Below, in pieces: positions 1,362 through 48,249 of a stretch of DNA of 64,000 bases; within the stretch, counting starts at the first letter, position 1, and each line of letters starts with the position of its first letter. Where the stretch lies: NCBI GenBank assembly GCA_003971905.1, contig RSEE01000008.1:620001-684000 (forward strand), read 5' to 3'. This stretch comes from Moniliella sp. 'wahieum' (taxonomy: Eukaryota). The translations under genes and the position numbers were made by a program. The notes below the pieces were generated by a model. That model saw only the letters and a program-made list of their open reading frames with translations. It searched no databases and was not told the origin of the DNA.

Positions 1362-2544
1362 GTCATTTTTTGCATGGCAACGCTCCCTCTCTCAAACCTC
1401 TCACCAAGTGACTCCTTGCCTGGGCTCGATCCATCATTATCCACATGATATCCCCCTCTCACGCTACAGCTGGGCTGGGCCTACTTTGCCACTGCTCCGA
1501 GTGCTGCAGCTGGTTGGCCCGCCTCTGTGCCTTTGTTCCCTAGTTCGCCCGCGTATGTTTTTACCTACGATGGCACCCTGGTTTCGCGACATGTTTCCTC
1601 TTCTTTGCTCTATCTTTCCTGATTTTTTGGCTCTTTGAATGGATTGAATGTTCCGTGGGTTTGGAGTAGTTGAACAGATCGCACGTTCAACGTTCAACCA
1701 ACGAATGTAATAACAGCGTATAACCGGTAGCCCGTTCAACTGGCACCATGTGGGCATGTTGTGACGTGGAGATGTGAGCTTCGGAACAAGACAGCAGTTG
1801 TGTGCTGCATCGACACTACTAGGCCACTGCTTTATTCTGGCTCCTGCGCCTTCCCTTCGTAACGTTCTGGTCTTCCCTTAACCAATCTTCACGTCATGAA
1901 CCGGCACCGCTGCCACACTCGATACTTTGTCGGGGTTACCGACCAGATCCCTAGCTCTTTCAGTGGGTCGGGGGTCGGATCTCTGATTGCGAACAGGTGC
2001 TATAGTCACAGTGCAACAAGGGAATAAACGTTGAATTTCCAACCTGCAGCTCTTGAGCTACAGTATCGCCACGGCTAGTAGTACTACGTGCAGCAATTGA
2101 ACAGCTGCCAATGAGTTCAAAGAGCCCATGAGGATGCCCCATGAAGCTGGCAGGATATTGCTTGGGTTACTGAGCCTTCCCCCCTTCAGGTATCATCGTC
2201 CAACACGCACGTGCAGAACCAAGAAAACCACCTCGTCTCGATCTCATTTACACGTAAGCGAAAGTCATTTTGTCTGGAACCAGAAAAGCCAGACTTCTTA
2301 GGATAGAAGCGCATACTACCTTAATTACACACAGTCTCTCCTTCAATTTGTCCCTGCTTGGTTGGCGCTTGCGAGGGATCACAAATAGCCTTGCATGTCC
2401 TAGCAAAGTACGAACGGGTTACCTGGCTGGGACTGGAGTCGCGTAGTACAATCTTGTGTGGAACGGACCAAGTGCGAAAAGCTGCATCGTGCAACACCAG
2501 GGAGGGGGAGAGGGGTATAGTCGTCACAATGGGGCACGCCCACT

Positions 2545-3419
2545 GGTCATTCGATCATGACTGAGTCTGGATCGCATTCCAGCCTGCAGGAAATTCCGGT
2601 CAGTATGTTGCGCGATGAAACGAAGGGATGGCGCAGAGTGGGAAGTGCGCACGTACCAGTCCATGCCTTCTTCGATGCCGGTACCTCGGTCGCAACAGTA
2701 GGAACGATGGTCCAACTGCGGTCGCGGAGGGTGTGGAGCGCCAGAGCTTCGGAGACCTCAGCAGGAGAGGCAGCTCCGGCCAGATCTTGTTTGTTGGCGA
2801 GGACTAAGAGCTTTGCGTTGCGCAGTTCGTCCGCGTCCAGAAGTGAGTGTAGTTCCCGCTTGGTGAGGCCTAGACGCCTTATCCGCCGAGTCTACCACAT
2901 AAACAATCGCTTTGGTCTCGTCACTGAAGCAGTGCCAGTAGCTCCTACACAAACGTCAGACATTACCAATGCGGAGAGGGAGCGGGAAGGCGGAGAGAGT
3001 CGTACCTGGTGGAAGCTTGGCCTCCAAGATCCCAGATTAAGAGATGGAGCGATTTGTATTGTACCTCCTCGACGTTAAAGCTCACCGCTGGAAAGAGTAA
3101 GGAGGTTAGCACACAAGACAGGAGGCGTTGCAGGAATGATACCAGCATACTTGGTACGACATGGACATAGGAGTTGAGCTTGAGCCTGTAAAGGATAGTC
3201 GTCTTGCCCGCACTGTAGAGAAGGGAGAATAGAAGAGGAAAAGGGGTGGGCAAGGGTCAGAACATACTAAGCGCTCAGCTGAGCACCGGGCAGTGGGCTT
3301 TGCTTAGCGCGGGAGACGCACCTATCCAAACCCAGCATCATGATCTTGAGCTCTTCCTGGCGCACCCAGAACATGAGGCTCGTCATCCAGCTCGACAGCG
3401 AGGAGAAGGTGACACCCAT
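2545..3419 (-). CDS. ARF-family small GTPase, Arl1-like (multi-exon, divergent)
   Basis: Spliced reading MGVTFSSL...KIMMLGLD|SAGKTTILYRLK...PT|VSFNVEEVQYKSLHLLIWDLGGQAST|RSYW...AIVYVVDSAD...LLVLANKQDL...GIEEGMDW. Shows G1 GLDSAGKTT, G3 WDLGGQ, G4 NKQD and an N-terminal MG. Intron 1 is 3213..3321 (GTGCGT...CAG). The 3' end is approximate. Confidence 0.88.
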
Positions 3420-4136
3420 CGTGCGATGACTCGAGGGGAGAACGAGGGAGGGGGGGCGATGGATGACGAGCAAGAGAGACAGCGAGTGCGTTGCCACTGG
3501 GCGCCGACTCGGTCGTTCGACGTGCAACGCGAAAGCGCGAAGCGCAAAGCGCGAAGCTGTCCCAAGGCCTAACTGTCAGCAATCGGGCAGCGCGTCAGCG
3601 GTCCACTCATTCCTCAGTCTTCACGCTTCACTGGCCACGTACCACCGGCGTGGTCACCGTCGCCGCGTCACCGGCGTCACCCGACACTACACAAAAAACG
3701 AGTCACTAGTCACCACAGTCACCTGGTTGCCGAGGATCTGCATTGGATGGCGTCGATGACGTGGAGACCGCAGCCGGCGGAGCGAAACCACCTCGTCCTC
3801 AGCGTTTGCCGCCTGACGTGTGTTCACATCTGTACCCACCCAACCCACGGCAGTCTATGCCCGACTACAGCGAACACAGTACATATAACTGTTCTGCCAA
3901 CTTGGGGGGCGATGGGCACAAAGCATCATACCGATGAGAGTCCCATGCGACCATGGCGGGCCGTGGATGATATCCGCCGCATGGATACAGTGTCCGCTGG
4001 CTCGTCTCTCTCGCTACTAGTCTAACTGGACTGATGCGTGTTTGGATGAGATGTCTACGACATGCGGGGCTCAGCGGCAGGAGATAACCGGAGCGCCCCG
4101 TAACACGACGAGGATATAGCGTATGGAGTACGACCG

Positions 4137-4833: not shown

Positions 4834-6927
4834 GTTGTGACATCGAGTGTTGAAGATGTGTGAGAGATGGACAAAGATTTGGTTTTCCGTGGTTCGACGG
4901 GAGAGATGTCCCAGAGAACGTAGTGATTGTTCTGGGCGGGCATGGATGGGTTACTTAGGGCGCTAGTGTGTGGCGGAGGGGGCGGTCTATGATGTTTGAT
5001 ACTTTGCTCTGCTCCGTGTGGAACCGCCGAAGGTGAGGGGAATGAGAGCCCTAATCCGTCTGTCATCACTTTGCTAGGGTGTCTTCTCGGGGCCGATACG
5101 CAACATTTTCAGAGTTCGCTGAAAGGCGTAAGGAGGTTATGAGAACCATCACCTTGGAGGCCAACTGAGGATCGACGATTCCCATGGCCCGCAGGTAAGA
5201 GGGTCGGAGATCCAAGAGGGCACGCCGTCGATTTCCTCCGCTACAAAGGTGGGAGCGAGAATGGATAGGCCTTTGTACCGCAGCCAATCAGCAACGTTCG
5301 AGGTCGACCAGGAGTATACTGCACCTGTTTATATGGTTAATTTAATGTGGGTCACAAAGAAGAAAGAATGTGTAGGTTTGAGGAGGGGGGGGCAGGTCAA
5401 TGACTTCATTAACGTACTGTTCATCATGTCACCCCGGGGTTCAGGGGCCCGGCGTCATCATCAACAGATGATGTTGCGGGGGATTGCCTTTGCAAGATGA
5501 GATGAATAGCTCTTTCTCGACGAACATATCTGTTGGAAATGCTGGGCACAGGACATGGACCATGGTGGCCGAGGGTTGGGGGACGGGATCAAAGATTTGC
5601 CCTTCGTACACTTTTGATGCGGTAAATATAATGATCCGTTGTTTTGTGTAAGGCGCACAACAGTTGTCCGTCCCAAAGAGATAAATAAAAGATCGTAGAT
5701 GTGTCAGTACAGCTTATCGGCAAGGTAGACCACGCCACGCCCTTCTTCTCGGGAAGAGCTGTGGAAGCAGGAGAGGAGATGGGAGAAAAGAAAGGAGATG
5801 AGGAGGTAGACGAGAAACGCAAAGCAGCAAGCGAAAGGGAAAACGAAATCCGCATCCTTCCAAAATACGTAGCGAGAATTTAAACGTGGAACGGCTAGCA
5901 GAGTCGCCAACTATACCATCGCGCTCTCAACCAATCTCAGACTGAGATCTCATTCCGAGCAATGGCTTGCCTGCTCGCCTACCTGCTCGCCTGCCCCTCA
6001 GTTCCCATACGAAGGATGAGAGTGGTCCTTCGACACGTCTTCTGGCATGAGAAAGGCCATCATGACCCGACACGTTAGGACAAACGGCACTATGTGCATA
6101 ACCCTAAGACCGGCCATAACATTAATGGGAGGACATGCCTGAACGTTGGCCTAACCCCGCAAGCTATTGCCACTGAACAGCGCGTATAGCTAGCCCCCAT
6201 TGTAATGGCATTTTCCTCGACCATCGACCATCGATCATCGATCATTGTTTATTGACGCAACTATATGATTAAGGTCCAAAGTACTTCGGCTTACTACACC
6301 ACCTGCTATGCAACTGCATCATACTCCTGTGCACTGTGATTAGACAGGAGCCCACGTCGTCGACTTGTCCCGAATCGGCATTTCGATTAGCGAGTACAGA
6401 GTGAGGTTTTCAACTACCCTACTGGGAATCTGCCGTACTGCGTCGTGGAACAGAACACTCGCTCCGGCGAGTAACTCAGCCTCTACAGTCGAGAGGTCGC
6501 CAATCGACCAACAGCCGCAGTGAGCGGAAACAAGAGGGTGCAAGTGCAGCGAAGAGCGTAGCGGTGGAGAGGCAGGTAGTACACGAAAACTGCACGGAGC
6601 AGGCAAGGACCAAGGACGAGGTGCGACCGAGCAACACTGCTTGTGGTTGGTTCCCGATTTGGGTGGCCCACAGGGTACACCCGAACGTCCTTCATCTCTA
6701 TGTAATAGTGTGTGAACAGCATCAAATAGCAGTACCAGCGGCGTGTGGATACCATGCCACCAGGAAAATAGATGACTATATCGTTGAGGAGCAACACATT
6801 GGTTACCCTCTGGTGACGTGCTTCGGAAGGACCAATAGCAAACAGACGACAGAGAGCATCATAATCGTGGGGTGGGAGGAGGGGAGGGGGGGTGGAAGGG
6901 ATGACGAGCTCAGGAGTGTAGAGAGAA

Positions 6928-8568: not shown

Positions 8569-10753
8569 GGGGCTGAGCAGCTGTGGGGCGAAGCGAGCCA
8601 GCTAGTCGATAGGCGCTGGGCTGGGCAAAAGAAGCACCGCACGCGCGCTTTGAGCCTCGCCGCTCCATTTCCATCGCTTCTCCACGTGGTCCGAGCACCG
8701 GAGATATGCGGCTGGCATGCGATTTCCACCTGGAGATGCGCATTAGTCACCGTCACGAATCACACAGTACTCACCAGCAAATTCATCACTACACCACTAG
8801 CCCTACGCGGACGCTGGATCTAACCCCCACCTTCCTCCACCAGCCAACGCAAGCGGCACAGTAAATGCCCGAGCAGCGCCGCAGGACAAATGGGCGTGAA
8901 CCGCCTGCATCGCCACACTCCTACCTCCCCTTGAATCTCCCATGAAATCCCTGGGTTCAAGGAGGCATTTGCCCTGATCAACATCGACTCGGGCAGCGTA
9001 AGGCGGCTATACTCTTCACCGCGAACGTGTGGGCGCAAGGCTCCATTATCTTGGGAGATGATCGATGATGGTGCATCGAGTAAGGTCAGACTAACATACA
9101 GCACACATGAAGGCACCTCTCGCTATGCGGCGTGACTAGTGACTAGTGACTGCACATCACGTTAGGTTTGACCAGGGAACAGAAAACGAACATATTTCAT
9201 CCAACAGCTTCTTACCATGTTTTGCGAGTATCTCGCCTCTCTGGACGAGGCGTCAGATGCGTCAGATGCGTCAGAGCTGATGGAGGCCCATTAGTACCTT
9301 CATGAACACGGAGATCGACTGGCTGGTCCCACCAAACTGCGCTGCTGAGCAGTTGAGTAAGAGGGCGTTCGGATGAACGATGGGGCAGTGGTCTTCCCGG
9401 GCCCCTTTTGCCACGTCATGTGTCCCCAGGAAAGCCCTCAGCGGGCCAACCTGCTTTAGGCTGTTTTTCCAAACCAGATTGAGCATGCTGTTAAGGGCAT
9501 CATTGAGTCCTTGGCAGCACTGGGCATGAGTCTGCGCAAGTTTGACTACACAGCATGTGCGGTGCGTCTTCATTCTTTTTGTTGTTGTGTATGTGGGTTC
9601 GATCGATGATTCATCTGACCTACTCCGCAGGTGTGGAGGGAGGCCTTAACAACAGGGGTGGCGGGGCGGAATTAAAGGCCCACATGCCCTGGGATAGCAA
9701 GCGTTGCCCTCTCTTGGCAGTCCTCGCGATCTATTGAGTGGTTGTGATGTAATAATCCGTTCCACGAACCCCGCTGGAGATCTTAGCCGTGGTGTCTGCT
9801 ACAAAATGTTGTGGATCCTCCACAAGTTGAGGGCTGGGAGAGGGCGCGAGAGGGGGAGGGGTTCGGAGCTACACAGACGTGGGAGCTTGAAAAAAGGTTT
9901 TGTAACATGTCGCAAGACTTTATGAAGCGCCTATTCTTCGCTATACTGCAAGTCATCTCTTCTATTATCCGCGTCCGAGCCTGCAACTAGCGGAGCGATG
10001 AGGCTGGGGAAGGCCACAGGGAAGGCCCCTGGCAGACCCATTGAGTTGCTGAGGGGCTATAGTAGGCAGTCGATATCCGGCGCGGTAACCTAATTGTCAC
10101 TCTGATGGGCGCAGGCGACCGAGCTGCTAGACGGATGCGCAGCAGCGACGACCACGCAGAGTACTAGTAGTGGGGTCCAGGTGTAGCAGACTGCAAGCGC
10201 CATACACTTGCTGTCGGTCGGTTGGCTGAGGGCGGGGACACGGCCTTTTTATAGGTGTTTTTAGGCGATAGGCCTACGAGCCTTGCGTCGTCCCGTCGAT
10301 CGCCTATGAAGAAGAGGGAGTGCTGCGTGTGCGTCAGCGGTGCAGAGCACTGCTGGTCCTCCTCGGCCTCCGCGATGATCAGGTGCACCAGGCCTGCGGC
10401 TGAGGCTTATCGAGAGGGGATACGTATGCGCTTGCGCTTGCGCAGTGCGCTTTAAGCGAGCTCGATCGATAGTTTCTCTTATACAGGCGATCCCAGCCCA
10501 CACACTCGCCCTGTGCTCCAACGATCGGCGCTGTCAGCCGGGGCCGACAGGAGCGGACACTGGCGCTGTGCTGCCCCGCCCGAAGCCCGTGCCCTGTCGC
10601 ACTGCCCCCACTGGCAAGATCCCACATCACCCGCTGGTTCTGTCCCCTCCTCCGTCTCCCTCCTCTCCTGCTCCTCCGCCTCCTGTGGCCCCCTCTCCTT
10701 CTCTTGGCGCCCCCACCCCCAACCCTCCCCCTACCCGCCCCCTCCCCTCCTCC

Positions 10754-15577: not shown

Positions 15578-17872
15578 GGCGGTGGTGGAGGGGAGGTGAA
15601 GAGGCTAAGAAGAAAAAGGTTGGGGAATGTCTGCAGCTGGTGGGGGGGCAAGCTCTTTTCAGCGGGCGCTTCTAGATCCAGGCACAAGTCCGAGGCACGG
15701 CTATTTGCGAGATGGATGACAAGGAAAATTATTGCCCAGCCCCCCAACGCCCGCCCAGAGGATTAATGTCAGTCAGTCGGCTCCGGCTCCGGCTCCGGCT
15801 TCTGAAGAGCCGGCGGCGCCCAAAGCAGCAGGGGGCGAGGCAGTCGCGTGGCGCACCGGATGAGCGATGAGCGCTGAGCACGAGTAATACTGTAGGCGCA
15901 TTGTGTGGGATGTGGGCCCCAATTCCTTGGTTTGGCGCGTCCCAGCGCCGTACTGAGCATGATTATTGAGCAGCCTGAGCTGTGCAAAGGAGTTCAGCAA
16001 CCCGTCGACTTTGAGTGTTGAGTGTTGCGTGTCGAGCACACTGAGGGGTCTGAGGCCTCACCTGAGGCCTGAGGGCCTGAGGAAGCACGGAGTTCTCAAT
16101 GAGTCCGTTGCCAATTGCGCCCAGCGGGCACACGAAAGGCACGTGAAAACCGCCTGGCAGAGGCCAGCCACAGCCGGAAGCCAGCGGCCAAGAGCTTTAA
16201 AAGCTTCTCAAGCTTCTAGCGTCCAAGCTGATCACATGCAGATCACAAGCTTCAAGCAAGTGTCCAACAGTGCCACAGGTTGCCTCAGTTCCCCGGGCGT
16301 GTCCAACCAGGCCCAACTCTGCCCAACCCCGACCACCTAGCGACCCCACCAGCCAACCATCAAAGCGTCAACCCCACAGCCGCCCTTAACAGTGAGCGGA
16401 ACCTGCGTCCAGACTGGTAATAGCCGCCGTCTGCTGCTCCGTCGGCCAATGCCCCTGCGCCTAGGCGGTCGTAGCAGCCACGTGACGTACGGCACGTGAT
16501 GCGGATGTCGCCGCTTCATTTGCACCGATGGCCGCAAAAGCTGCGACACATACCTGTTTCCGCCCTGCACTGCGGATCTCGGTTGGCTCGGCTGAGATCT
16601 AGGGCTAGTATACGAACAAGGGACGAACAACATGTCCTGTGGACGTGTTGAGCAGCGTTGAACATTGAGCCGTCACGCCAATAGCATGAGGAGCTTGAAA
16701 CCCTGTGGCTGGTGCCCCACCGAATCATCCCAATGTCGGATGGGCTCAAACTCGTTCTTCCCCCAAAATCCAGTGCGTTTAGCACACTCGGACAACTGTT
16801 GTTGGGGACAAGCCAGCAGCGTCAAAAAGCTCCAAGTTGGCTCACGCCGAACGGCTGATATGCCAGGTGGCCCACAACAGGATGGCAGTGCGGAACTAAT
16901 CCTGCTCCCGGAATCCCAACAGCCTCTATCTGATGTTCCCGCTCCCTTACTGATTATCAAACCCTTTCCGGGCCCTGGGCCACCAGAACAAGTCAAACAT
17001 CCCACACCGCCCTCCCACAGTGTGATTTCTGCCCTTGGTGCTCCATCGACGCCGGCACCCCTCATTAATGTCGACTTGGTGACCAAGATGCGGGAGAGTG
17101 TCCGGATGCTCCCATATACGTATCCCAGATGTGGATAATAGCGTGCTGGTCGCAGACTCCGGGAGCGGGACGAGTTACGGGGCGGGAAACGAACAGGATG
17201 TGATTGTGTGCAGAAGCTTCACATCTTTAGGGGGCATACCTGCTATACGACATCCTTTCCACCCCAAGGTGATCGATGGCCGCCTTCCTCGTCTACTATA
17301 GGCATGCAATATAGCTTGCCCCCACAGGCTTCCTCAACATTACATGTTTTGCGCGCGGAGTCTCTCTCAGCGCTCACTCAGCTGTTCACAATAGCCCTTC
17401 TGGATCATGCAGATCATGCAAGCTCAACGTTCAACCCTGAGTTCTGAGAACTGAGATCTGGCCCCTGGGCAGGATGACGTTGATCATGATGGGTGCAGAG
17501 TGCGGGGGATACGGATTGGGGGATGCGTGATCGATATGCAACGAATTATTGTGGTGTGCAAGTATATAACGAAGTGCTCAAGATCTGAGACGAGGTACGG
17601 TCTGGTACGGCACCGGTACGGCGTTATATATGTACTCTCGAGTACAAGTGGCGCCGCCGGGTTTCACTGCGGCCTGATCACACATGGAGACAAAAATGCC
17701 GCCACAGGGTTAATCGATCGATTATCGATTTAATCGATTAGATCTAGACCTTTTTGAGACGCGTGATGGAATAGAATCAGAGTTCTGAGATAGATCTTCA
17801 TTATAATGATCCTAGTTACCCAGCGATGTCCTAAGTGCAGTTATGCAGTGGTAAAGAGAAGACAGGAGCTGG

Positions 17873-17900
17873 GTTGAACGTTGAACGTTGAACGTTGAAC
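17873..17900. repeat. (GTTGAAC)4 heptamer tandem repeat
   Basis: gttgaac gttgaac gttgaac gttgaac read directly. The junctions form AACGTT palindromes. Confidence 0.95.
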
Positions 17901-17907
17901 CCAGACT

Positions 17908-18398
17908 GAGGAAGAAAGAAGAAGAAGAAGAAAGAGAAGAAGAAGAAGAAGAGAAAGAAGAAGAAGAAGAAGAAGAAGAAGAAGAGAAGAAAGAAGAAGA
18001 AGAGAAAAGAAGAGAAGAAGAAAGAAGAAGAAGAGAAGAAGAAAGAAGAAAGAAGAAGAAAGAAGAAGAAGAAGAAGAAGAAGAAGAAGAAAGAGAAGAA
18101 AGAAAGAGAAAAGAGAAAAGAAGAAGAAGAAAAGAGAAAGAAGAAGAAGAGAAGAAGAAAAGAAGAAAGAAGAAGAAGAAGAAAGGAAGAAAAGAAGAAG
18201 AAGGAAGAAGAGAAGAAGAAAAAGAAAGAAGAAGAAGAAGAAGAAGAAGAGAAGAAGAAGAAGAGAAGAAGAAGAAGAAGAAGAAAGAAGAAAGAAGAAG
18301 AAGAAGAAGAAGAAAAGAAGAGAGAAGAAGAAGAAGAAAAGAAGAAGAAGAAAGAAGAAGAAGAGAAGAAGAAGAAGAAGAGGAGAAGAGGAAAAGAG
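17908..18398 (+). repeat. Degenerate (GAA)n microsatellite, purine-only strand, 491 nt
   Basis: Only A and G on the + strand across the interval, dominated by GAA with frequent 1-nt slips. Confidence 0.97.
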
Positions 18399-21104: not shown

Positions 21105-21494
21105 AGGGGGGCCGGTCCAACACGGCGAGGGTGTGTGTGTGGCTATACGATGAAATTAAGGGGCTAAACGTTAAGAGGGTGTATATACTGGAACCATATC
21201 ATATGACAGAGCTTAAGCTGCTTAAGGCTGTGGGACAAGAAGAAACGCTGCTTCTAAACCGGCCGGTACATCCATCCGATTCAAGCTCTGATGTATATAC
21301 TTTTTGCGGGAGCATTTGGGTGGCGGGTAGCCCGGCAGTGGCGCCCATTGGTGGGTGCCACAACCGCTCAAAAATCTTTTATCTCTAGACTTCATCCATA
21401 TCATTGACAGTGAGCTTAAGGCTGGGACAGGGAAACGCCACGCCTAAACCCACCCGTTCATCTTGCATGTGCTGCTTAGTAGCGCCAACCTCGT

Positions 21495-22717: not shown

Positions 22718-23447
22718 CTAGCTTGAAGCTTGCAATGAAGCTTGAAGCTTTTTGACTTAGTCATGCAGTCTTCTACATGTCACATGTCACAGATGCCACT
22801 AGTCAATGGCATGTGGGTACAAAATATATGTGTGGGAGGGGTGTGGCGTGGGGTAGCGGCGATGCGATATAGGAGTTTTACTCGCGCGTTGCGCGATCGA
22901 TGAAGGACACAATTGTGCGTTGCGCGTATCCCCGCAATATATGTTCAACGAAGTTAACCCAAAAAACTCCTCGTTCTCATTTTATCTTATTGCTGTGAAG
23001 CATGCGAAGTTTATGTTGAGGAGCTCCGATGCTTTGCTGCACTCGTATCTCGGCCAAAATTGCAGGCTCGCGCTGCGTTATAGAGGCGAATTATTCGGAA
23101 CAGTTCTCAGAGACCAAAGGCTGTGGAGCAGCCACGGGGTGGCTGGTGCGTTTGGCCAAGATCCCTTCAGTCCCTCCTTAGGCCTATGAGTCCCGTTGTC
23201 TTCCTCATTCCGCAGCAAGGCGCGGCAGCGCGACCGGCTACTTGATGTTCCTCTGTGTAGGTGTTGTTGGTTGGCTTGACCACAACCAAAACCACACCAC
23301 CACACACTCGCGGATTTTGCATCGCTGTACACTCTCTCCATGAGGGCCACCGGAATAACTCCAGGTCTCCATCATCACAACTGCGTGGAGGATAGTGGCA
23401 TAAGCCCAAGTCTTAAAAATATGTTTAAAAGGGAAAGAGACCGGAGG

Positions 23448-23484
<37 letters not shown>
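23448..23484. repeat. (CAGGAGA)5 heptamer tandem repeat
   Basis: caggagacaggagacaggagacaggagacaggagac read directly. Confidence 0.9.
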
Positions 23485-25099
23485 TCGACTAATGACTGGT
23501 GACTATAGTGCGCGCTGAGCAGGGAAGGGTGGGTGCGCACACAGCCCACGAACGGGGGACCCCGTTTTCCACCCGACTAATAAGTGAGCGGGAGGGATCA
23601 ATATATGATTTGGAGGGCCGTGCAGGGGAACCCTAACACTCCTACCCGCAGTGGCACACTGGTGCAATGGATATACCCCCGATAGTGCGCGATGATCGAT
23701 GATGTCATCAATGATGCCGATTATGCGGGGAGTGCGGGGTGGCCGCGGCGATAAAAAATGGACAGATACGCGTCACGCGCCACCGACGAATCGCGATATC
23801 GTCACGCGTGTCACCTGCATCACACTACGTCAACACAGTGCGTGTTTTAAAGCAAAGAACTGGTCACCCGTAAGCGAGGTAACCGGTAACCGGTTACCGG
23901 TAATCGATCATCATTAATCACATGCATCACATGCACAATCGAGATCCATCTCTGCGGCTGCACCTAGAGTAGACGTCGGGTGCAAGGGGGGGGATGGGTG
24001 TAGCAGCTCCCCTCTGTTCGTGCCTCTTCTCTGTGCGTTATGCTTTCCGAAGCACATACACAGTATAAGTAGCTCGAACCAATTGTAAGTGTGGCCTGGG
24101 GTAGCAGGTGTAGCTCTCTGTAGGGGTGGTGAGACCGGCGGTGAGGCCTGAGGCCGCCGCGAGGCACTGGCCGCCGGCCTCGCGGCGGCGGCCGGCCCCC
24201 GAAGGGAAATTTGCCCCCCTAAATTCACCGGTTGAGGGAGCTGGAGCACACCTGGGCTGGCACGGAGGCGCTTGCGGGCCTTGCGGAGTTCGCTGAGGTC
24301 GATGCCACCTCTCAGGCCCTGTGGCCTGAGGCCCCTGAGAGTATCGATAACCGGTTATTATTAGCCGATAACCCTCAGGCTGAGGGCCTGAGCCTCAGGC
24401 CTCACTATCAATGATCAATGAGTGACCCGTGACCACGGTCTGATCGAATAGGTAATGAAAACCGGCCGGTAGTTCCGGTAATTACCAGGCGGGTTACTCC
24501 GGCACTGGTTACTCCTCTGGGGTTCTCCGCGGTGATAAAACTTGGTTTCTTGTTTGCTACCATAGGAAAACATTTGTGACACCGTGGGGGGGGGGCAGCA
24601 GAAAACCTATGGCCCCTAAAAACGATTGCCCAGAGTCCAACAATCGCACCCTTTGTGGATGAGAGGCCACGCCAGCAACACCAGGCAACACCACACACTC
24701 CCCCTTTGCCTGCAACAGATGTCTCTTTTGACCTTATTCGATGTGGGCCTTCTTAGTAGGCCCTATGACTGTCACTGGAATTCGTGTGTGAAATTGGGTT
24801 GAATGAAGACTGGTGGGAATGCGCTTGATTCATGAGCGCACGATCCATAAGCGCATAAGCATGGAAGATGAGCATGTTGAATGCCGAACGGTGGTGACCA
24901 GTGAGTACTGTGTGTTGATCGTCACCAGTGAGTGTACTGAAATGCGCTGGCGAGTATCTGTACAGTGAATTAGTATTTGAGCTAAACACAGTTGATGAGT
25001 TCATTAGTCCTCGTATTGAGTACAGTACCCACCGACTGTGATTTCGCACTCAACGCGAGTTGCTGTCCTGAGGCATGACGGCCTCTGATCGGCTGAATA

Positions 25100-25441
25100 C
25101 TCGAACTGACTAGTGACTGAGTACGAGTACTCAGTACTTACTCAGTACTCAATGTTCAACTGAGTACTCAATTTAGTACTCAAAGGGAGTTGCTGCCCTC
25201 AGACTGAGGCCTCAGATCTCAGACTCAATCGCACTCGATACTCGGTCAACGTTCAACGTTCAACGTTCAACCCGAAGCGATTAAATGAGTACTCCGAGCA
25301 CTGTTAGTTCACTGTTGGACTGGGTCTTTGGACTTCCGAGCTCACTCAGTACTCACTGTGCTCAAGTAGTGGTCGCTCGCCACGTTGTCAGCAGTCAGTT
25401 CACTATTCACTAGCAACTAGTCACTAGTCACTAGTCACTTC
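25100..25441. repeat. Mosaic of short palindromic heptamer repeats (AGTACTC, GTTCAAC, ACTAGTC units; AGGCCT and AGATCT sites)
   Basis: gagtactcagtacttactcagtactca; ctgaggcctcagatctcaga; gtcaacgttcaacgttcaacgttcaac; actagtcactagtcactagtcac. Confidence 0.85.
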
Positions 25442-26111
25442 AGCAACCGTTCTTGGCGCTCGCACGGAATTAATTGAACGTTGACGCATTGAAGGTTGTG
25501 GGGAGAAGAGCGGGGTAGTCGCGGTGGCCGAAGAGGACTGGGTACTGGGTACTGATGTGGCGCTGATGCGGCAACATAGCGGGTAACTGGTAACCGGCAA
25601 TGTTAATGAAGACTCGATGACGTATGTTGCCATAGGGGACGTGTGTGCATGGCGAGGGAACAATACTGTCCGTGTGCTTCGTCCTGTACTACCTACCACC
25701 TTGGGCACCAACAGGCACTTATTGACTGTTGCCAGCTCGTAAATGGAAGACACTGTGTGACTGGTGCGGATGTGGGGGCGGGGGCAAGAGCTCCGGGTGT
25801 GGACTGCTGCGGGCTCGTCTCTAGCTTCAAGCTTTGCCGGTGAGGCCTAAGGCGAGGGGTCGCCTACTGCACCATTAGTTGCAGTAGTATGCATCACACG
25901 CACATCACAAATGCCGCAGCAGTCGCGAGAGGGGGATCAACGTTCAACGTTTAACACCCGCAATTGGTGGTGCATTTGTGCGTTTGTGAGGGATGCCAGG
26001 GATACGATCGATCGGATACCGACCCTACGGGGGTCGCGCTGCCAAGGCCGGAGATAGTAGTCGGCCAGTTGGTGGCAATGCTGTACTTACCAGAGGTGGG
26101 GCTTGCTAGGA

Positions 26112-26162: not shown

Positions 26163-28265
26163 ATGCCGGTTCCTTTGCCTTAATAGTTTGGCAGGTGCTG
26201 TTCTACTGCTGCACCTTTTATTTTTGTTCATAGCACAAGGCCACACGGCCAGTGCAATGGGACAATGTGGGTGAGAGCAGCGACTGGGGCCAAGGAAGGC
26301 CAAGGAAGGCCAAGGACCAAGTGGCAGAGCGGAGCGGCGGTATGTCCATTTGTAGTAGTAGGAGCTTCCACCTGCTCTCTGCAGCTCGAAGAATCGCGCT
26401 GCTGAAAGCGTCACGCGTCACGCGCCATGCGTCATGCGTCGCTTCTGCCACTTTGGATCAAGGTGGCGATCGGCTGCTGCAGCGCAGCGGAGTGACTAGT
26501 GACTAATGACTAGTCAGTGAAACTAGTGACTACCATTCGCGCGTGTTCGTTCACGCGTCACGCTCAGCGGTGAGGCTCACCGGCCACCCCGCTCACCGGC
26601 AATTATCGGCACCGAGTTCATCTTGTTCATGCGTCACAAGTCACACCTCACCTAGGTCCATCACTTTTTTTTCTTTTTTCGTTTGTCGACCATTGATCGA
26701 TCCATGGCCATGCCTTCCAATGCGGGGTGCGCAAGGCGCAAGAGTATGAAGTGGAAGCAGTTGGAGGGGCGAGAGCTCTGGAGACTATTTCGGGGAACAT
26801 TGCACCGTTCCACATTTCTTCGCCCATCGATCATCGTACTCATCGATCATCGATCATCAGTACTCAGTACGTGCCCACTACCCACGCACTCACGTACTCC
26901 CATAAAGACCGTGCCATGCTGTGCGTGTGATGCACTTGCATGGCATGGTTGCACTGGGTGGCGCAGCCGGGGGGCTGTGTGGGATGGTACTGCAATGAGA
27001 ATGAATAAGCCATACACTCTTGCGTACTGCGTAGCCCCCCCTTTGGTACGTAAACCATCCAGGTTTTAGATTTTATTGCCTCCTCCCCAAATCCACTGCG
27101 GGGGTGCGGGGATATCTCAGGTTGCTGGCCGCATGGGACGGCTGTCGACTTCCCATCCCTGCCCTTGCCGCAGCAGCCGCGTTTTTTTTTTGCACGCAAT
27201 GCCGTGTGTCAGTGATGTCATCGATCGTCGGCATGGTTCCTCGCTCCCGGGGTCCAGTTGCATTGCTGTGTGTGACAAGCAGACAGCGTGGGGCTCCACC
27301 GGCCTGAACGCTTACACTTGCCGTCCGCCGGAGACACAGCGGCGCCTCCGTTGTACCGCTCGGGCGCCTCGCGCGGCCCGCATACCGCCGGCAGCAGCCG
27401 CTGGAGGGACTGCGAGAGCATCCCAAACGGAGCATGCAGGTGGGATGCTGCGTAGCGAGTACCCAGTATTACTGGCTCAGTACTCAGTACGTGCGCACAC
27501 GCTTTAGCGCTACGAGTGGGGGCTATTGGGCGATGCTGGCGCCCTGCTCTTCGCGCTCCCGGCCTAGCGCGTGCCACGTTTCACCCGTCTGATATCACAC
27601 GCCGGAAGCCGCACCTGCCGCACCATGCACCATGATGCATGCATGATGCATCTCCATCACCTCCCATCTGCAGTCGCGCGTGCGCTTGATGCGTGACGTC
27701 GCCGCGACACCCAAGTGGAAGAGACACGGTGGCGATGTGGATGTTGGGCAGGTGCTGCTGCGTGGCGCCTGGCTGGCAACGAGCCGGCGCTTCCTCGCAT
27801 ACTTCTCCCAACGCGCCCAGCGCGGCGGCGCAGCGCGGCATTAATGGACTCGCTACGTACTGCTTCCTCCCCCGGATTTCTGGCACAAACCAAAGCCGCC
27901 TCGAGCCAGACAGTCGCACTGGATCGGTGTCGACGTTGACCGGTGACCCCCCTGCCTGATGCACCCGAAGCTCCCCGCTTCTGGTGGGGCACTGGCGCCG
28001 TCTGCCGATGACCGGTGGTGATCGATGTGCACCGGCTCTCTGCTCGGCTGCGGTTCTGCGGTCCAGGCTCGGCCCCGCAGAGCAGCAGCCTGCAGCAGCC
28101 CTTCCCCCCTGCGTTCCTGCTGTTCCTGCCGTTCCGCCCGGCAGGCTGGCACATTTTCACTCTCCTGCCCTACCCCCCCAGATTGCATATATACCCGCGC
28201 ATTCGCCCCCCGCTCTTTTCCCCACACACCCCCACAACCACAACTTCCCCTCTCCCTCTACCAAC

Positions 28266-31648: not shown

Positions 31649-32947
31649 TAGTCGGTCGATAGGTCACACAGAGGGGAGCGAGATTACCGGTTACGCAGTT
31701 ACGAGTGAAGCGAAGAGCGGAGCGGTGGTGGTGACACAGCGGACACCAACTGCAGAGACGGAGGACGGGAAAGGCTGGCGCGCGCACAACGCGCGCTATA
31801 TGGGATGAACTGGCCTAGTATTAGCGCCCCTGAGCCATGGCACCGGCCTTTACTTCGGCAAGCAATCATATATCACCCCCATGTCACAACACCAATAGTC
31901 GTTAGCCTACTGTAGCTCGTCCCAGGACCGCCCAGCCAGGCCAGGGGCCACAACCGGGATTGCGTAGGGAAAACCCATTTCCTGTCACCACATTGGTTTT
32001 CCCGGCCGGCGACAGGTACCCTGCCGGCCGCGACGGGCCAGGGCGCCCCCCCGCCAGCAGTCGCCCTTTGAACCTTCCCACAAACATGCCTGCCCCCAAA
32101 CCGATGCCATAGGGACGGCCACCTGCAGAAGCTCGTGCTCAGGGCGCTCAGGTCGCAGGGGTACGTTGATGGGTGGCCGCAGCGAGTATGCATCACGTGG
32201 AGAGGGGAGGGGGGACGAAGCTGAAGTCGAGGAAGCAGAACCGATTATCCGACACGGTCGAATTGTCGATTGGCAGTTACTCGTTACTAATAGTTACTAG
32301 TTACTGCTACTAGTCAGTACCACTAATACGTAGTCCACAATAAAAACAGAGCATATCTTGCAGCGCCCTTTTTGGCGTTGCTCTGTGGCCAGGGGTGTTC
32401 TATAGCGGCATAGAATTACGTGCGGAAGAGCGAGGATGGCCATGTGCTGTGGTGTAGAATGTGCCAAGGGCCGCAACATAGAGGCTCCCGTACTCCTAGG
32501 TGGCACAATATGTCTGCACGCGCACCAGCTCCATGTGCAACCGATGGCCGCCACGCGTCACGGCGTCACGCCGAAAGTTGCTGGCGCGATTCGATTGATG
32601 GGAGGGAGCGAGCAGCGACGGGGCCAGGGGGGGGCGCTCTGGGCGCTCTGGCTGGAATGGTGACGATGTGACGCGTGACGCATGATGTATGATATGATGC
32701 ATGGTTTGCAACAGGCGAGGGGTGACTGATGTCATGGTGTTTCAGTGGGTGACATTTTTATCGCTCCTTCAGCAGCTTCAGCGCTCAGCCGCGTCGCAGA
32801 CTAGGAGTACGAGGTGGTAGAGTGTGCTACGGTCGATTGCACTGTATTCAAGGCACTACGCCTCCGCGTAAAACCTAGTCAGACCGAAGCTGGTTGACGT
32901 GTGTGGCATTTGCAGTTTGTCCTCTCCTCCCTACCACCTGCTCCCCA

Positions 32948-38507: not shown

Positions 38508-38594
38508 TGCTTCAAAGGGGAATCGAACCCCTGTCACATCGATACGACACTGGCGTGATGGCAACGATGTAGTATACCACTAACCCATTGAAGC
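38508..38594 (-). tRNA. tRNA-Gly (GCC) with 16-nt canonical intron
   Basis: Minus strand: GCTTCAA TG GGTTAGTGGTATACT A CATCG TTGCCA[tcacgccagtgtcgta]T CGATG TGAC AGGGG TTCGATT CCCCT TTGAAGC A. Acceptor, anticodon and T stems pair. Intron 38543..38558. A T5 Pol III terminator lies just downstream. Confidence 0.93.
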
Positions 38595-40176: not shown

Positions 40177-42114
40177 GGTGGTGGTGGAGAGGCTGATGCA
40201 GGCTAGTGAGAGATGGTGGAGGAAAGGGTCAAGAGTTATAGTACTTAGGCAATCGTGTCCTCTCAAAGGTTGAACAATGTGGCACCAGATCAAAGTATTT
40301 GAAAAGACGCTAGACACGAAGATGGCGGAGAATGAGCGCAACGCCTAGTGGTCGTGCGGTGCTACCTCAGGCATGGGTGTGGGTGGTGTGCCTGGTTGCT
40401 GGAAGGTACTCTCGGCTGATAGTGTTTTGACTCAAAGGGTCCCAGTGACACGGCGCGTGTGTTCGGAAGCCCACAACGTCCTAGATGGTCGTATCGTTGA
40501 CTTCTTTGCTCTATAGTTGCTAGGCGCTGGTTCCTACAATCGCTTTGAGCGCCAACGTCGTCAACGTTCATTAATGGTTCAACGTTGAGTGTTCAACGTG
40601 TTCATCGTTCAACTATAACGCTTTCCTTGGGTCTATGCACCGACCTAAGACCTGCTCTCTGTATTTTACGCCGAAGCGGGTAATAAGCGGAGCGAGCAAT
40701 GGTGTGCTTCCAAGCGCTTGCAGTGGTTTTGCCGGCAGGCACGTGAAGCTGCACATTGACTGAGTTTGACTCTTGAGCTTGAAGGGAGTCGCAAACGGGC
40801 CAAGGGCAGTTGATATTTGGAGCAGATAGCGAGCAGGAGGACTGATCTCGATCGCTCTCTATCGACTATCTCCATTGGTACGAAGATCTAAGATCTAAGA
40901 TTCGGCTCAGGAGCCGAAGCCCAAACCGAACCAGCGACACACCGCCCCCGAGCCATCCCAAACTTGCGCATCGGAGGTGCAGTAGCACCGGAGCAATCGA
41001 TTGAAAATTGGAGGCAATTAGCAGCAGTGTCGGCCCTGGAAGGGAGACAGCTGCTGTGCTGGTATCTGTTGTGGGGCATAATGATAACGGTGATCCCGGT
41101 GATCATCATAACGCCTGCAGCTTTTCTCGCAGTTGATGCATGATGAACGATGCATGATACGCTATACAACTTGCCAGGTGTGTCTCATGCAATCATGCAT
41201 ACCGGGTAGCTGAAGAGTACTGTGATGAGTGCGTGAGTGTATAGTACTGTTGCTTCAAGATGCGCCCCAAGCGACTTGTCGTGCTTTGCTCACCGCCCCT
41301 GAGCTCATAATCGCTCAGACTGAGCGTGCCAAAAAACCCCTGCAATTCCTCCCCGCCCCCCACTGAGTAATGAGTCAGTGCCACGTACTGAACGCGCTGA
41401 GCGCCGAATTAAGAGAGAAACAGAACACGGCTCGATTCAAGTCTTACATGGCATAACCGGCATAACCCCGGAATATCTCACCTTTGAGCCCCCAAGGGCG
41501 AATGCGAGCCGATGCGAGCCCCAGCCGGTACAAGAACATACACTTTTGCTGCAAAGCGCCGCCGTTTGTATGGCGGAGGGGGTGGCAAATGGTAAACCGG
41601 GCCGCTCCCGTGCCTTCTCCCGCATTTCTAACTGTGGAAACCTCTCACAGTGTACAAGAGGGGTGTGGAGGGAGAGCAACGCGCGCCAACCTAGTCTCCG
41701 TGCTTATTTCCCGCACCTCTCCCTGCTCCCCTGCAATGTGAGAGAGATAGCGGAACTGATCCACAAACTGCCGATTGCTTTTCTCGATCCTTGGCACCAA
41801 ACCACTGCTTCTCCTCTGCACAAGGGGGATGTTTTAGGTACAGAGAGATAGCACCTTTTGCGCAACGCGCGTTAGCGGTTCCCGCGTATATGCTTTTCTA
41901 TACTCTGTTGCGTTACCGGGTTACCACTGTCTGTTCCTACTTACCTTTCCACCCCCCCTCTCCCTAGTCTTCCAAGTCGATGACGACAATTGATACTGCG
42001 CGGATAGGTCTTTGAGGTCACCGTATATAGTGTCCCCAATCTCATTTCTCCTTCTCTGCTTATCTCCTCCTATCCCTTCCTTTCGCTTCCACCACATACA
42101 TTCCGACCAACCCC

Positions 42115-43798: not shown

Positions 43799-44768
43799 AC
43801 CGCGTGAACAGAGGCACCACCGATCCCACTCCTTTTATCACGACTTGCTTGGGTCCTATAAGCAGTACCTAACTACACCTCACGGGCACACCAGGGGCGC
43901 TGCCCACACCCCATTACGTTGTTTGTATAATCTTTCCTGTGGACTGTGCGTCGGGGGGGGGGGGGGGAACATACTACTAATCCCCACCCACCGATATACA
44001 TATCACGTTGATACGACTCATATGCGGGGAGATAGCGCTGGGGTATCCTAGTCTGCATCTGTGCTAGTCGTAGTAGTGTTGCAGCCAGCGTGGCCGATGT
44101 TGCGCCGGAAGAGTAGTCTTCGCTCTTCAGCCCCCCCCCACTGGACGGCTTGACTGGCGGTGCGCGGCTGGGCTGCTGTACACAAAAGGGTATCTCAACG
44201 GTAGCCGTTTCCTTCATTTGCGGTGCCTGCTGGTGCACCTCCCCATGCGTTTGTGGCCGAAGCTAGGAATGAGCATGGCAGTCAGCCTCGGGACTAGTGA
44301 CAAATGCCAGCGGAGAAGACACTGACGACGTATTCGATGGGGCGAAGAGGAGGGCTGGGGATGGACACCGGGATTGAAATTGCAAACCGACGCCGGCATC
44401 GACCAAAAAGAGTGGTCAATATGAGGCTTGAACTCATGACCTTGGCATCACCAACACTCTCCAAGCGGAGACATATTAGTACCACGCTCTGACCAACTGA
44501 GCTAATCGACCATTTACGATCTTGCATCAGGCCTGAGATCGGATGCACTTGTGTTCCACTTGCTGTTGGTGCTTTTCAATGTTGATTGACTGCCCCGGAC
44601 TGAGTCTGGGCTGCTGCTCCTACCTCTCGACATCTCACGCCAATCTGCCCGGAACACACGAAGACGGGCAGGGGTACATGGTATCATTCCAACAACAGGC
44701 CAAACAAGCAGGACAGATCGTCTAGGCTGATCATCAACGGTCCAGGGCAGTAAGGTAGGTGGTATACT

Positions 44769-47480
44769 TCAGCACCTCCCCCAGCAAGTAAACGCGCCGG
44801 GGTGGAAGTTGGCTTGCGCACGCGCCGCGTCGGTGCGCAGCTTCAGTTCGCGTTCCAACGCCACCTCCAACATTGGCACCGTCACATCCCACGTTTTCTG
44901 GCTGGGAGTGGTGAGGCTAGCACGCGACAAGCGCGTGGGCGCCGGGCCCATCGGCCACCGCGCATGGAGCGTAGGCAAGAACGCTTCGTGAGCCAGCAGA
45001 TCGGTCTGAACCTGCAAGAGACGGGTACGCAGTTGTACTTGTTGCTCCGCCACGCTGCGGACAGCACCCACAAGCGGAGGCATCGGTGTGACCCAGAGCG
45101 CAACGTGCAGCGGCATCTCTTTCCTCAGTGCCAACCGTACGGAGGTGGCAAGATGTTCCCGGGATCCTGTGAAGCGTTCGACGAGAGAAGAGGTAGACTT
45201 ATTGGAGCGCAAAGAGGCAAGCGAACGGCCACTGCCGCGCCACACCACACTCGAAGTTGGAGTTGTTGAAGGCGTCTCGATACGCTCCTCCTCATCCGAC
45301 AGCGCAGAGGCCAAAGAGTACGTTGAGGAAGGCCGGGGCAGCGGACCCCAGCCGTACTCCTCTGACCCCACGGCCGGTGGCAGGGGGGCCGCGTGCACCG
45401 GGCCGCCCAATAAAGGCAAGCGTTCACCCACTCACGAGCTAACAGCGGAGTCCCCGCCCCAAATACCCATATAGCCCCCGAAGGAAGATGAAGCGTCCAC
45501 CCTGTCTTGCCTTGCGGGGGTGGGAAGTCCCCCACGGGCCCAGTCCAGGGATCGTTCTTCTCCCCGTGTGCAGGAGCGAGACGAGCTCGGGAATGGGTGA
45601 GGGGAATTTCACCCGTGAGCACCGCATGGGCGCGCCAATTCCCATCACCGAGGGGAGTTATTGTGGGGCAGAGAGCCGACGCCCAGACGATAAAAGCGTA
45701 AACGCCCTTCCTCAACTAGGGCAAAGGTTTCTGTCCACGAACGCAGATCCCGGTCTTTGACTCGCTTGCGCATTTCGCCAAGCGCCTGCTTACGCAACAG
45801 CAGACCTGACATGGGTGCCTCAAGGTCCTCCGAGCCGACCGCCTCTCTTTCGGCCGTAGAACTAGACTGGGAGAGACGGGATGCTGCAGGCGAACCCGAA
45901 GGAGCTGGGGAGCGTGACCTGGATCTCCGAGAAGGGGTGTGGTGGGGACTGGAGGGCGGGATAGTCAATTCGATGGGGGGGAAAGAGCTGGTGCTCGCCC
46001 CCCAGGAGCGAAGAAGGATGCTGCCCCTCTTTGGAACATCGCTGCTGCCTCGTTTGGGAACATCGCTGCTACCAGGCGCAGGGAGCCGGATCTGGTGGGT
46101 CTTGACACCCATGTACATGTCCTTCAAGAGAGTTTTCATGTCGGTCCCCCACGCTTTCTCGCGTTCTTCCGTTTCCGCCTCCTCGTCAGTTGACAGAGTG
46201 GAGAGCCCGGCAACGCCGAACGGCCCTGTCCCCAAAGACATGCTGATCCGATTCAAGGCGCGGGCCGCCCGACCTGGGGCATGTATATGTGCTGCTCCAG
46301 TGCTCGGGGCGGGAGGAGGACCGGGGGGGAGATCGAGGGAGGGAGACTCTCGTCCCAGTCCCAGGGAAGATTCGGATCGTACCTCAGGCTCCTCTTCCAT
46401 ATCGGCTCCGTGTTGGGTGAGCCAGGTGGCAGCAGGTGCCAATCCATCCGCTGCAAGGGCATGCATCGTGTTCAGCACATACTCAGAGCGAGTCATATGC
46501 CGTCCGTTAAGATCCGCAATGTGCAAGTCGGTGTTGAGCAAGACCAACGAGTAAGCAAGCGAATGGACAGCAGCAGGAGAGAGGAAAAGGAGGGTCCGCT
46601 GTGGCGAAGGTAGGCATTCCCAGTAACGCTGAGCAAAAGCAGCGAGTAGGCGGTCGACCTGCTGGGTTTCAGCCTTGAGGTACAAGTGGTCACACAATCG
46701 TCGGAAAGCAGCGTCTAGTCGAAGACCGTGGAAATCAAGGCGAGAGAAGTATGCAGGTAGAGCTGCTTGGGCTTCTGGAAGATCGGAGCCGAGCCAGGCG
46801 GCGACTTTACTGCGCGGGAGGAAGGAGGCGTCACCTGTCCAAATGCGTCGGGCTAATGACTCGCCAATAGAATCGGCGGCGGAATCCGATATGAGCTCCT
46901 GGGTCCTGGGGGCAGGGGGGGAGGCAGAGGTGGTGGTGGTTGGGGCGTGAGGCGAGGCGCGTTTGGAGACCGTGCCATCAGCTGGGGTGGAGATCGGGAG
47001 GGGTGGGGCGGAGAGGGGTACCTTGGAGGCAGAGGTGGGGTCGAGGAAGGATTGGTCCAGAGCGAGAGCAGGCAATACGGGTGGGGCATCGGATATAGGG
47101 AGTGGGTCGTGGGTCGTGTGGGGGTGCGGCGAGAGGCAGCGGCCATGTGCATCCAGGTCAAGAGCCGGCCACTCGTCTCCTTCATTCGCCGCCGAGAATT
47201 GCCAGGGGGAGGGTCATGAGTGGTGGTGGAGATGGAGTCGGTGGCAGTGCTGAGGGAGTGGGAGTGGGATAGGGAGGAGCCTCGCTGGCTCGCGGGGGCG
47301 AGGCGGTGCGCGAGGTTCCACGGCGGGCCATGGGCATGGCGGCGCAGCTGGTGCCAGAGAGGCCGCGAGACGGAGGCGGAGGGGAAGACGAGGGGCGGGG
47401 AGTGGCGGACGCGGGGGATGTGGGGGGTGCGGGGCCTGCTTGGCGCGATGGGCGTGGGAGCTGCCGTGGGAAGGATGCGG
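44769..47480 (-). CDS. Sec7 + PH domain ARF guanine-nucleotide exchange factor (Syt1-like)
   Basis: LDFHGLRLDAAFRRLCDHLYLKAETQQVDRLLAAFAQRYWEC and HSLAYSLVLLNTDLH (Sec7). Later GLLLRK..SWTETFALV..G.LRFY and EWVNACLYWAAR (PH), then EEYGW. Start not resolved. Confidence 0.85.
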
Positions 47481-48249
47481 CACGCGAGATGGGCGCTGTG
47501 GAGGACGTGGGGGGGTCGGGGGGGTCGGGGGCGGCAGGGGCGGCAGGGGTGTGGAGGCTGGGGATCGTCAGGGGCGTGGACGCCGTAAGCTGGCGGGGTG
47601 CGGTGCTCGGCAGCACGTGGACGGAGCACAGGCAGAAGAGCGCACCCGCGCATCCGCGCCACACACACTGGCGCCGTGCCAAGCGGTGGCAACCCTAGGC
47701 CATGCGCCGCGCGCGGCCTGCTCGGCTGCGACCTGCCAGGGCACCCCCCCGCGCCCCCTGCACCAACCTGCACCTCCTTGCAGGGTGTCGAGGCAGGATG
47801 GCTTATCGCCTGGTCACTGCCCCCGCGCCATGTCACATGCTGTCACATGTCACATGACATGTGCTCATCACACGTCACGTGACGCCACCATCGCTTGTCA
47901 CAACGACATGTCACATGCCACTTCACACGTGTCACAGGGGCCAGCCGCGATCACATGATCACAGCGATCCACGAGCCACGGGTCCAAGTGGCACTAGGAA
48001 AAACCCCCTGTTTCCTATGTGGGTTGTTTCCTATGCCCTTTCACCAGTCACCATACACATCATCTCATCGCCATTGAATATGACATGGGACTCCATCAGA
48101 TACTACCCCTTCCGTCCTACAAAAATGGAATCCCTTTTGCTTAGATCTAGACCTCAGAGATCTACACTCAGGCCTTCTTCACAGGCACATGCAACCAGTC
48201 ATATGATTCATCACAGCAGAGCCAGGTGTAATAGTCGCTTTGTGTGTCT

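Follow-up and report, generated by a model that had tools for sequence, protein, structure and literature searches.

The locus and its period-7 arrays

The window analyzed here is a 64,000-nucleotide (64-kb) stretch of contig RSEE01000008.1 of Moniliella sp. 'wahieum' (positions 620,001 to 684,000, forward strand). It has a G+C content of ~56% and carries ordinary eukaryotic genes. Pfam matches identified a serine carboxypeptidase, a glycerol-3-phosphate dehydrogenase, a sugar transporter, tripeptidyl peptidase II, an FAD oxidoreductase, a Sec7 protein, a ubiquitin hydrolase, and a Hobbit/FMP27 protein. The non-coding DNA contains patches of heptameric repeats in which identical T-N-A triplets enclose short palindromes. 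We describe the structure of these patches and propose that they are probably the excision scars of a DNA transposon family.

In the original prediction, the patches were described as tandem 7-nt units, each composed of a 6-bp palindrome of the form A-nnnn-T and one spacer base, and 24 places were cited. The named palindrome was present at all 24. The heptamer spacing was confirmed at 12 of them, where at least two copies lie 7 nt apart, and not at the other 12, which contain either a single palindrome between two TNA triplets or a different spacing, such as 9 at 16200-16217, part of an 11-nt structure at 27633-27651, and a composite at 40556-40612.

Period 7 accounted for 32 of the 113 rows reported by Tandem Repeats Finder (TRF). 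Perfect arrays of at least two copies numbered 38 at period 6, 50 at period 7, and 13 at period 8. In Markov simulations of order 1, 3, and 5 (40 each), the mean number of period-7 arrays was 2.8, 3.6, and 4.4, respectively, with a maximum of 9, so that the predicted excess of this period over random controls was clearly observed. In 24 of the 50 arrays, the unit was a 6-bp palindrome plus one base (simulation means, 0.2-0.5; maximum, 2). The palindrome was of the A....T type in 23 of these 24, as had also been predicted, and the exception was TGATCA at 24407. Nine of the 50 arrays came from a GAA tract at 17911-18397, and a further 17 outside this tract were non-palindromic. Non-palindromic repeats had been claimed to favor period 7 as well; this was not the case, since the count of 17 lies between those of period 6 (38) and period 8 (13). 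The GAA/purine tract itself is long and imperfect (~165 copies of GAA with 81% matches by TRF), adjoins a (GTTGAAC)4 scar array, and has nothing to do with the T-N-A rule described below.

The T-N-A rule

The motif XNY, a 4-bp palindrome, and the same XNY was counted for all 16 classes of outer letters. The TNA class gave 49 matches, compared with a simulation mean of 2.0 and a maximum of 5. The 15 other classes gave 1-12 matches each, which is about the simulated range, and none was clearly enriched. N was C or G in 44 of the 49 TNA matches, and their cores drew on 14 of the 16 possible 4-bp palindromes. The fixed T-N-A core and the use of many unrelated motifs were thus both borne out, the number of cores exceeding the 11 originally noted. 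When TNA-palindrome-TNA matches were counted irrespective of N, both N bases were identical in 49 of 70, indicating that the triplet is copied directly and is not inverted.

Anatomy of single events

The 49 TNA matches fell into 42 in-phase clusters. In 24 clusters, the 7-nt register ran on for 2 nt or more past a single side; 11 clusters showed such an extension on both sides and 7 on neither. The minimal unit, which holds for most scars, is the 12-bp sequence TNAxy-y'x'-TNAxy. At 17424, for example (..aagc TCAAC gt TCAAC cctg..), a direct repeat of five bases encloses two bases that reverse-complement the final two of the repeat. In the three-unit array at 25246, the first base is the T of the first TCA, and the end lies two bases past the last TCA. 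The one-sided register and these array borders indicate that a pre-existing palindromic heptamer was not duplicated. The palindrome is created by the event itself from the local flank.

The scars occur in a small number of exact forms. In the commonest product (+7), which reads abTNAxy-y'x'-TNAxy or its mirror image, two inverted bases lie on one side and the other copy lacks its outer two bases; this structure places a 4-bp palindrome between two identical TNA triplets. Both full copies of the TNA-centered 7-mer are retained at 14 sites (nine +9, four +8, and one +11). Each form was counted in a targeted manner, with the 15 other center classes as an internal control:

abTNAxy-y'x'-TNAxy (+7): TNA, 35; other 15 classes summed, 16
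mirror +7 form: TNA, 18; other 15 classes summed, 5
two full 7-mers plus 2 inverted bases (+9): TNA, 9 distinct sites; other 15 classes, 7 matches
two full 7-mers plus 1 inverted base (+8): TNA, 4 sites; other 15 classes, 6 matches
two full 7-mers plus 2 + 2 inverted bases (+11), at 27631: TNA, 1 site; other 15 classes, 1 match

The scars of the window are as follows; strand was not assigned (.) for any of them.

1687..1696, +7 TCA-ACGT-TCA, in phase on both sides
3666..3681, +9 CGTCACC-gg-CGTCACC, the full 7-mer twice plus 2 inverted bases
3703..3712, +7 AGTCA-ct-AGTCA, one-sided
6235..6244, +7 TCA-TCGA-TCA within the array 6217-6245
9059..9068, +7 GATGA-tc-GATGA, one-sided
9133..9149, two stacked +7, (TGA-CTAG)2-TGA
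9251..9275, two stacked +9 CGTCAGA-tg-CGTCAGA, one inverted base per side (period-9 array 9250-9275)
15868..15877, +7 TGAGC-gc-TGAGC, one-sided
16063..16082, +7 TGA-GGCC-TGA, then the +8 variant CCTGAGG-g-CCTGAGG
17403..17418, +9 GATCATG-ca-GATCATG
17424..17433, +7 TCAAC-gt-TCAAC, one-sided
17875..17898, three stacked +7, (TGA-ACGT)3-TGA
21211..21226, +9 GCTTAAG-ct-GCTTAAG
22736..22745, +7 TGA-AGCT-TGA
22780..22789, +7 TCA-CATG-TCA
23693..23702, +7 TGA-TCGA-TGA
23880..23889, +7 TAA-CCGG-TAA
24142..24151, +7 TGA-GGCC-TGA
24395..24404, +7 TCA-GGCC-TCA
24846..24860, +8 CATAAGC-g-CATAAGC
25107..25116, +7 TGACT-ag-TGACT, one-sided
25142..25151, +7 TCA-GTAC-TCA
25212..25221, +7 TCA-GATC-TCA
25246..25269, three stacked +7
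25346..25355, +7 ACTCA-gt-ACTCA, one-sided
25421..25437, two stacked +7, (TCA-CTAG)2-TCA
25937..25946, +7 TCA-ACGT-TCA
26411..26420, +7 TCA-CGCG-TCA
26493..26502, +7 TGA-CTAG-TGA
26551..26560, +7 TCA-CGCG-TCA
26840..26866, two stacked TCA-TCGA scars abutting a TCA-GTAC-TCA scar
27477..27486, +7 TCA-GTAC-TCA
27631..27648, +11 CATGATG-ca-tg-CATGATG, 2 inverted bases from each side
27937..27946, +7 TGACC-gg-TGACC, one-sided, just upstream of the sugar-transporter open reading frame (ORF)
32137..32152, +9 GCTCAGG-gc-GCTCAGG
32294..32303, +7 TTA-CTAG-TTA
32556..32570, +8 variant CGTCACG-g-CGTCACG
32669..32678, +7 TGA-CGCG-TGA
32767..32789, +9 CTTCAGC-ag-CTTCAGC, then directly +7 TCAGC-gc-TCAGC; two events at one site
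40889..40898, +7 TAA-GATC-TAA
41089..41104, +9 GGTGATC-cc-GGTGATC
41134..41143, +7 TGATG-ca-TGATG, one-sided
41452..41467, +9 CATAACC-gg-CATAACC
47843..47852, +7 TCA-CATG-TCA
47949..47963, +8 GATCACA-t-GATCACA
57605..57620, +9 GATGAGG-tc-GATGAGG

None of the 42 clusters lies inside the eight Pfam-supported coding segments. Most are located in DNA flanking genes; the ORF-poor region at 21-28 kb holds 22 of the 42, and the gene-dense last 16 kb contains a single scar (57605).

Identical TNA triplets were also over-represented at a spacing of 9 (77 versus 31), and spacing-9 pairs enclosing a 4-bp palindrome plus 2 bases were found in 19 and 11 cases versus ~2. In an unbiased scan for pairs of direct repeats whose intervening spacer is the inverse of the adjacent bases, the combination of a 7-nt repeat and a 2-nt spacer was found four times, compared with a simulation mean of 0.27, and three of these four repeats were 7-mers centered on TNA. 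These results indicate that the directly copied unit is the 7-mer nn-TNA-nn and that the joint holds short inverted copies of the retained flank end. The 47 deduced original 7-mers showed almost no preference beyond the T and the A. N was C or G in 88% of them, compared with 72% of background TNA sites, and the outer positions had a weak G/C bias.

Comparison with related fungi

The best identity of the glycerol-3-phosphate dehydrogenase of the window in a large protein collection was 70-71%, and the best matches were from Microstromatales and other Exobasidiomycetes (Parajaminaea, Sympodiomycopsis, Jaminaea, Tilletiaria, Exobasidium, and Tilletia). These matches place the fungus in Ustilaginomycotina, with no close relative among sequenced species. 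As control DNA, we used seven metagenome contigs, three of which may derive from one organism, that encode relatives of the dehydrogenase with 64-71% identity (93,151 nt in total; 50-61% G+C). The TNA signature was absent from these contigs, with 4 matches in the TNA class versus 105 in the other 15 classes, and period-7 runs numbered 4 versus 50 period-6 runs. The signature is therefore not general to such fungi but lineage-specific. Look-alike stretches were not found in the other genomes scanned, and full-text literature searches retrieved no description of such heptamer arrays or of genome-wide stacked footprints. Excision footprints are of a known kind; what would be new is a single, self-extending form that occurs genome-wide and makes tandem repeats.

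Transposon excision as the probable origin

We consider it probable, at roughly 60%, that the heptamer patches are stacks of scars left when members of a cut-and-paste DNA transposon family, itself absent from the window, were excised. The scar products alone are observed, and from them we infer the transposon as the agent and the steps of the mechanism. The element would insert by a 7-bp staggered cut at nnTnAnn, generating a 7-bp target-site duplication. At excision, the transposase would seal each flank as a hairpin exactly at the element border, and host enzymes would nick the hairpins, mostly 2 nt off the tip, to give 4-nt self-complementary overhangs. If one overhang were ligated to the recessed end on the opposite flank and the second overhang trimmed, the net gain would be exactly 7 bp, in two mirror products. 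A +9 product would result when one hairpin is opened at its tip, and a +11 product when both overhangs are kept. Scars would persist only in non-coding DNA, because an addition of 7 bp shifts reading frames.

The stacking of scars would follow from the same steps. Each scar would leave two TNA sites, the second of which lies in a perfect palindromic 7-mer, y'x'TNAxy. Regardless of which overhang is retained, further events at this palindromic site would add the same unit in phase, giving (TNA + palindrome)n. Arrays would grow by repeated cycles of insertion and excision, possibly aided by slippage. Among the 35 clusters with at least one side in register, 11 were in register on both sides, compared with 1 in 16 by chance. 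This excess could reflect either preferential use of palindromic targets or additional events and slippage, and the two options are inseparable here.

The joints carry a hairpin signature, in that the bases at the junction repeat the adjacent flank in inverted form, as in P nucleotides. The palindromes are even-centered and the terminal flank base is kept, which argues for a nick at the exact border (RAG/Transib/CACTA-like) and not for the one-base-offset nick of hAT elements. An exact-border nick that gives even palindromes is the geometry of RAG and Transib. A dedicated hairpin-linked mutational process at TNA sites had been one of two mechanisms put forward in the original prediction. Its anatomy comes close to the one found here, in that every event leaves an extra, direct copy of the TNA site together with two bases that reverse-complement the adjacent flank. 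The part invoking hairpin-primed or template-switch synthesis did not stand; unlike in that version, the duplicated unit is the 7-mer centered on TNA, which fits insertion followed by hairpin-type excision.

In the 21 TNA-palindrome-TNA matches with unlike N, the central bases were complementary in 11 (e.g., TGA...TCA), where one-third is expected. Such pairs would fit occasional hairpin opening 4-5 nt off the tip, which inverts the center of the triplet.

Other derivations of the repeat unit were tried and rejected. Duplication of an already palindromic heptamer, as a general rule, conflicts with the clusters in register on one side only. The main product could equally arise from a 5-bp duplication (TNAxy) with 2 inverted bases, but the +8, +9, and +11 forms, which also repeat the 2 bases before TNA, could not. 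For a 3-bp TNA duplication with long hairpin opening, the products derived by hand carry inverted copies of the triplet, whereas N is mostly the same in both triplets of the window. Period-6 repeats with inverted spacers were also in excess (40 versus 16); they are scattered in coding DNA, and TNA occurs in only 1 of the 40, pointing to an effect of coding periodicity.

A fuller version of the transposon interpretation is more tentative, and we give it slightly less than an even chance. In this version, one transposon family entered and left ~3% of the non-coding TNA sites, formed RAG/Transib-like exact-border hairpins, used a 7-bp nnTNAnn target, and returned to its own palindromic scars to produce the arrays.

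Evidence against transposon excision and rival explanations

Several observations weigh against the excision of a transposon. Neither a transposase domain nor a RAG/Transib-like gene was seen in the 98 ORFs scanned among the 104 of at least 150 amino acids in the window. The sole candidate element is the segment at 22147-24127 (1981 bp), which is flanked by the TGA-centered 7-mer GGTGAGA (outer limits, 22140-24134) and has 12-nt inverted ends, CCCCTACWGAGA; ~0.08 such pairs are expected by chance. It lacks a long ORF and is a weak candidate, possibly a decayed non-autonomous member of the scar-leaving family. The scars were read from one sequence only, so that the insertions are unpolarised, and the window's only dispersed repeat, a solo-long-terminal-repeat (solo-LTR)-like pair, differs by 1-2-nt indels and shows no 7-nt difference that would polarise one. 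About 47 scarred sites among ~1600 non-coding TNA sites would require very many cycles of insertion and excision. The product spectrum is highly stereotyped, with one dominant form, whereas 28 different footprints were obtained among 128 Ac/Ds events in Candida (excerpts of PMC5873905). Plain 7-mer duplication without inverted bases showed no TNA enrichment, and a single case (15859) was found outside the palindromic arrays. Among the 24 one-sided scars, the mirror forms were distributed 17 versus 7 on the + strand, where symmetry predicts an even distribution, although the difference is not significant. The growth of arrays could also be due to slippage and not to repeated hits.

End joining would not usually give scars of this density, with a single dominant product and so few plain duplications, which makes a dedicated nuclease or a domesticated transposase conceivable. 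Such a transposon-independent enzyme would cut nnTnAnn with a 7-nt stagger and leave hairpin-capped ends, and repair would write the +7, +8, +9, and +11 forms. The products need merely two ends bearing the 7-mer and hairpin opening, and neither an element nor a transposase was detected in the window, consistent with this explanation. On the other hand, direct 7-bp duplication at both ends is the normal result of staggered strand-transfer integration, and fill-in predicts mainly the plain duplications that are not enriched at TNA. No nuclease is known to combine a 7-nt stagger with hairpins. We therefore regard this enzyme as unlikely, although it is the rival to be taken most seriously.

Ordinary tandem-repeat dynamics, in which chance hairpin-prone quasi-palindromic heptamers expand by replication slippage or unequal exchange, could account for the arrays of 3-4 copies, since any two-copy array is extendable, and for those 17 period-7 arrays beyond the GAA tract whose unit is not palindromic. 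Slippage presupposes an existing repeat, however, and leaves unexplained the 24 one-sided 12-mers with their flank-inverted central 2 bases, the enrichment of TNA alone among the 16 classes, the +9 and +11 forms, and the absence of the signature from related fungal contigs of similar G+C content. It is accordingly improbable as the origin of the patches, in agreement with the earlier statement that ordinary slippage is inadequate. The other mechanism originally put forward, a selected chromatin or transcription-factor code, would make the patches binding-site arrays for a dimeric protein reading TGA/TCA half-sites at 7-bp spacing. The patches do lie in gene-flanking DNA, often just upstream of genes, and TGA/TCA half-sites are common in bZIP-type sites. 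This idea was not sustained, because 14 different cores are in use, each taken from the local flank, the minimal units are one-sided 12-mers, and the deduced original sites are nearly without preference outside the T and A; the rule of duplication plus inversion accounts for the structures base for base. We consider it even less probable than slippage. A sequencing, basecalling, or assembly artefact is the least credible explanation and very improbable, since avoidance of coding DNA, dependence on the local flank, and several exact variants under one rule are not expected of artefacts.

Relation to known systems and significance

Hairpins are formed on flanking DNA by the hAT, Transib, RAG1, and MULE transposases, and footprints remain at such sites after end joining (excerpts of PMC5499845). 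The scars of the window resemble V(D)J coding joints and the products of Transib-RAG elements (CMCT clade) in the flank hairpin (same excerpts of PMC5499845), the off-tip opening, and the short, even-centered, flank-templated palindromic additions. The 2-nt inverted additions also lie directly at the end of an intact flank copy, as in RAG/Transib-type joints. Unlike V(D)J and Transib joints, the scars are germline, genome-wide, and stacked in tandem arrays. Transib makes 5-bp target duplications, compared with 7 bp at nnTNAnn here.

Ac/Ds elements in plants, budding yeast, and Candida albicans share with the scars the retained duplication, small deletions, palindromic insertions at the joint, and a few predominant products per host; in fungi, their footprints consist of short deletions together with inserted palindromic P nucleotides (excerpts of PMC5873905). 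The palindromes of hAT elements are centered on the complement of the base adjoining the element (excerpts of PMC5873905), whereas the window shows even palindromes with a retained terminal base. The hAT-type odd-centered joint was found in none of the three candidate sites, which are five-base runs with a central TNA. Ac makes 8-bp duplications, and among hAT elements the 7 bp found here matches hAT7 alone (excerpts of PMC12730594). Both hAT7 of rust fungi and Kyakuja of Laccaria are basidiomycete transposons with 7-bp target duplications, and the excerpts of PMC12730594 contain no report from Ustilaginomycotina, no TNA-centered target, and no excision scars for them, nor the excision chemistry of Kyakuja. 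The hAT geometry does not fit in the case of hAT7, and Kyakuja (KDZ; CA..TG termini and a KDZ transposase) fits in duplication length (excerpts of PMC12730594). PIF/Harbinger and CACTA elements, which make 3-bp target duplications (excerpts of PMC12730594), share the T-N-A triplet at the insertion point. The direct repeat of the window is 7 bp in length and includes 2 nt on each side of TNA in the +8, +9, and +11 forms; a 3-bp duplication, as made by PIF/Harbinger and CACTA elements, cannot repeat the bases flanking TNA.

Excision footprints have so far been known locus by locus from reporter assays. If the transposon interpretation is true, a natural genome carries dozens of them per 64 kb in a few exact forms, constituting a record of past transposition that would persist even where the element itself is gone. 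Host hairpin opening (2 nt off the tip) and end joining would then be readable in a little-studied group of basidiomycetes. The de novo origin of one class of promoter-proximal tandem repeats and palindromes would also be explained, representing a new route for the birth of tandem repeats, and such repeats should then not be taken for regulatory codes or ordinary microsatellites.

Other features of the window

Two tRNA genes, both likely to contain introns, are located at 38508-38594 (minus strand, 87 nt) and 44413-44511 (minus strand, 99 nt). ARAGORN gave no anticodon for the first and missed the second, which was detected with Rfam. The solo-LTR-like pair of ~190 bp lies on opposite strands at 31092-31283 and 52634-52816, with TGTCA...TGACA ends and 87.6% identity over 185 nt, and the copy at 31092-31283 is flanked by the 5-bp direct repeat GTTGA. 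A 12-nt periodic array at 49326-49777 (TTGGTCCTTAGC-like, ~22 copies) is situated inside a 762-codon minus-strand open frame without a Pfam match, which probably encodes a repeat-containing protein. This array is responsible for an excess of TNA pairs at a spacing of 12.

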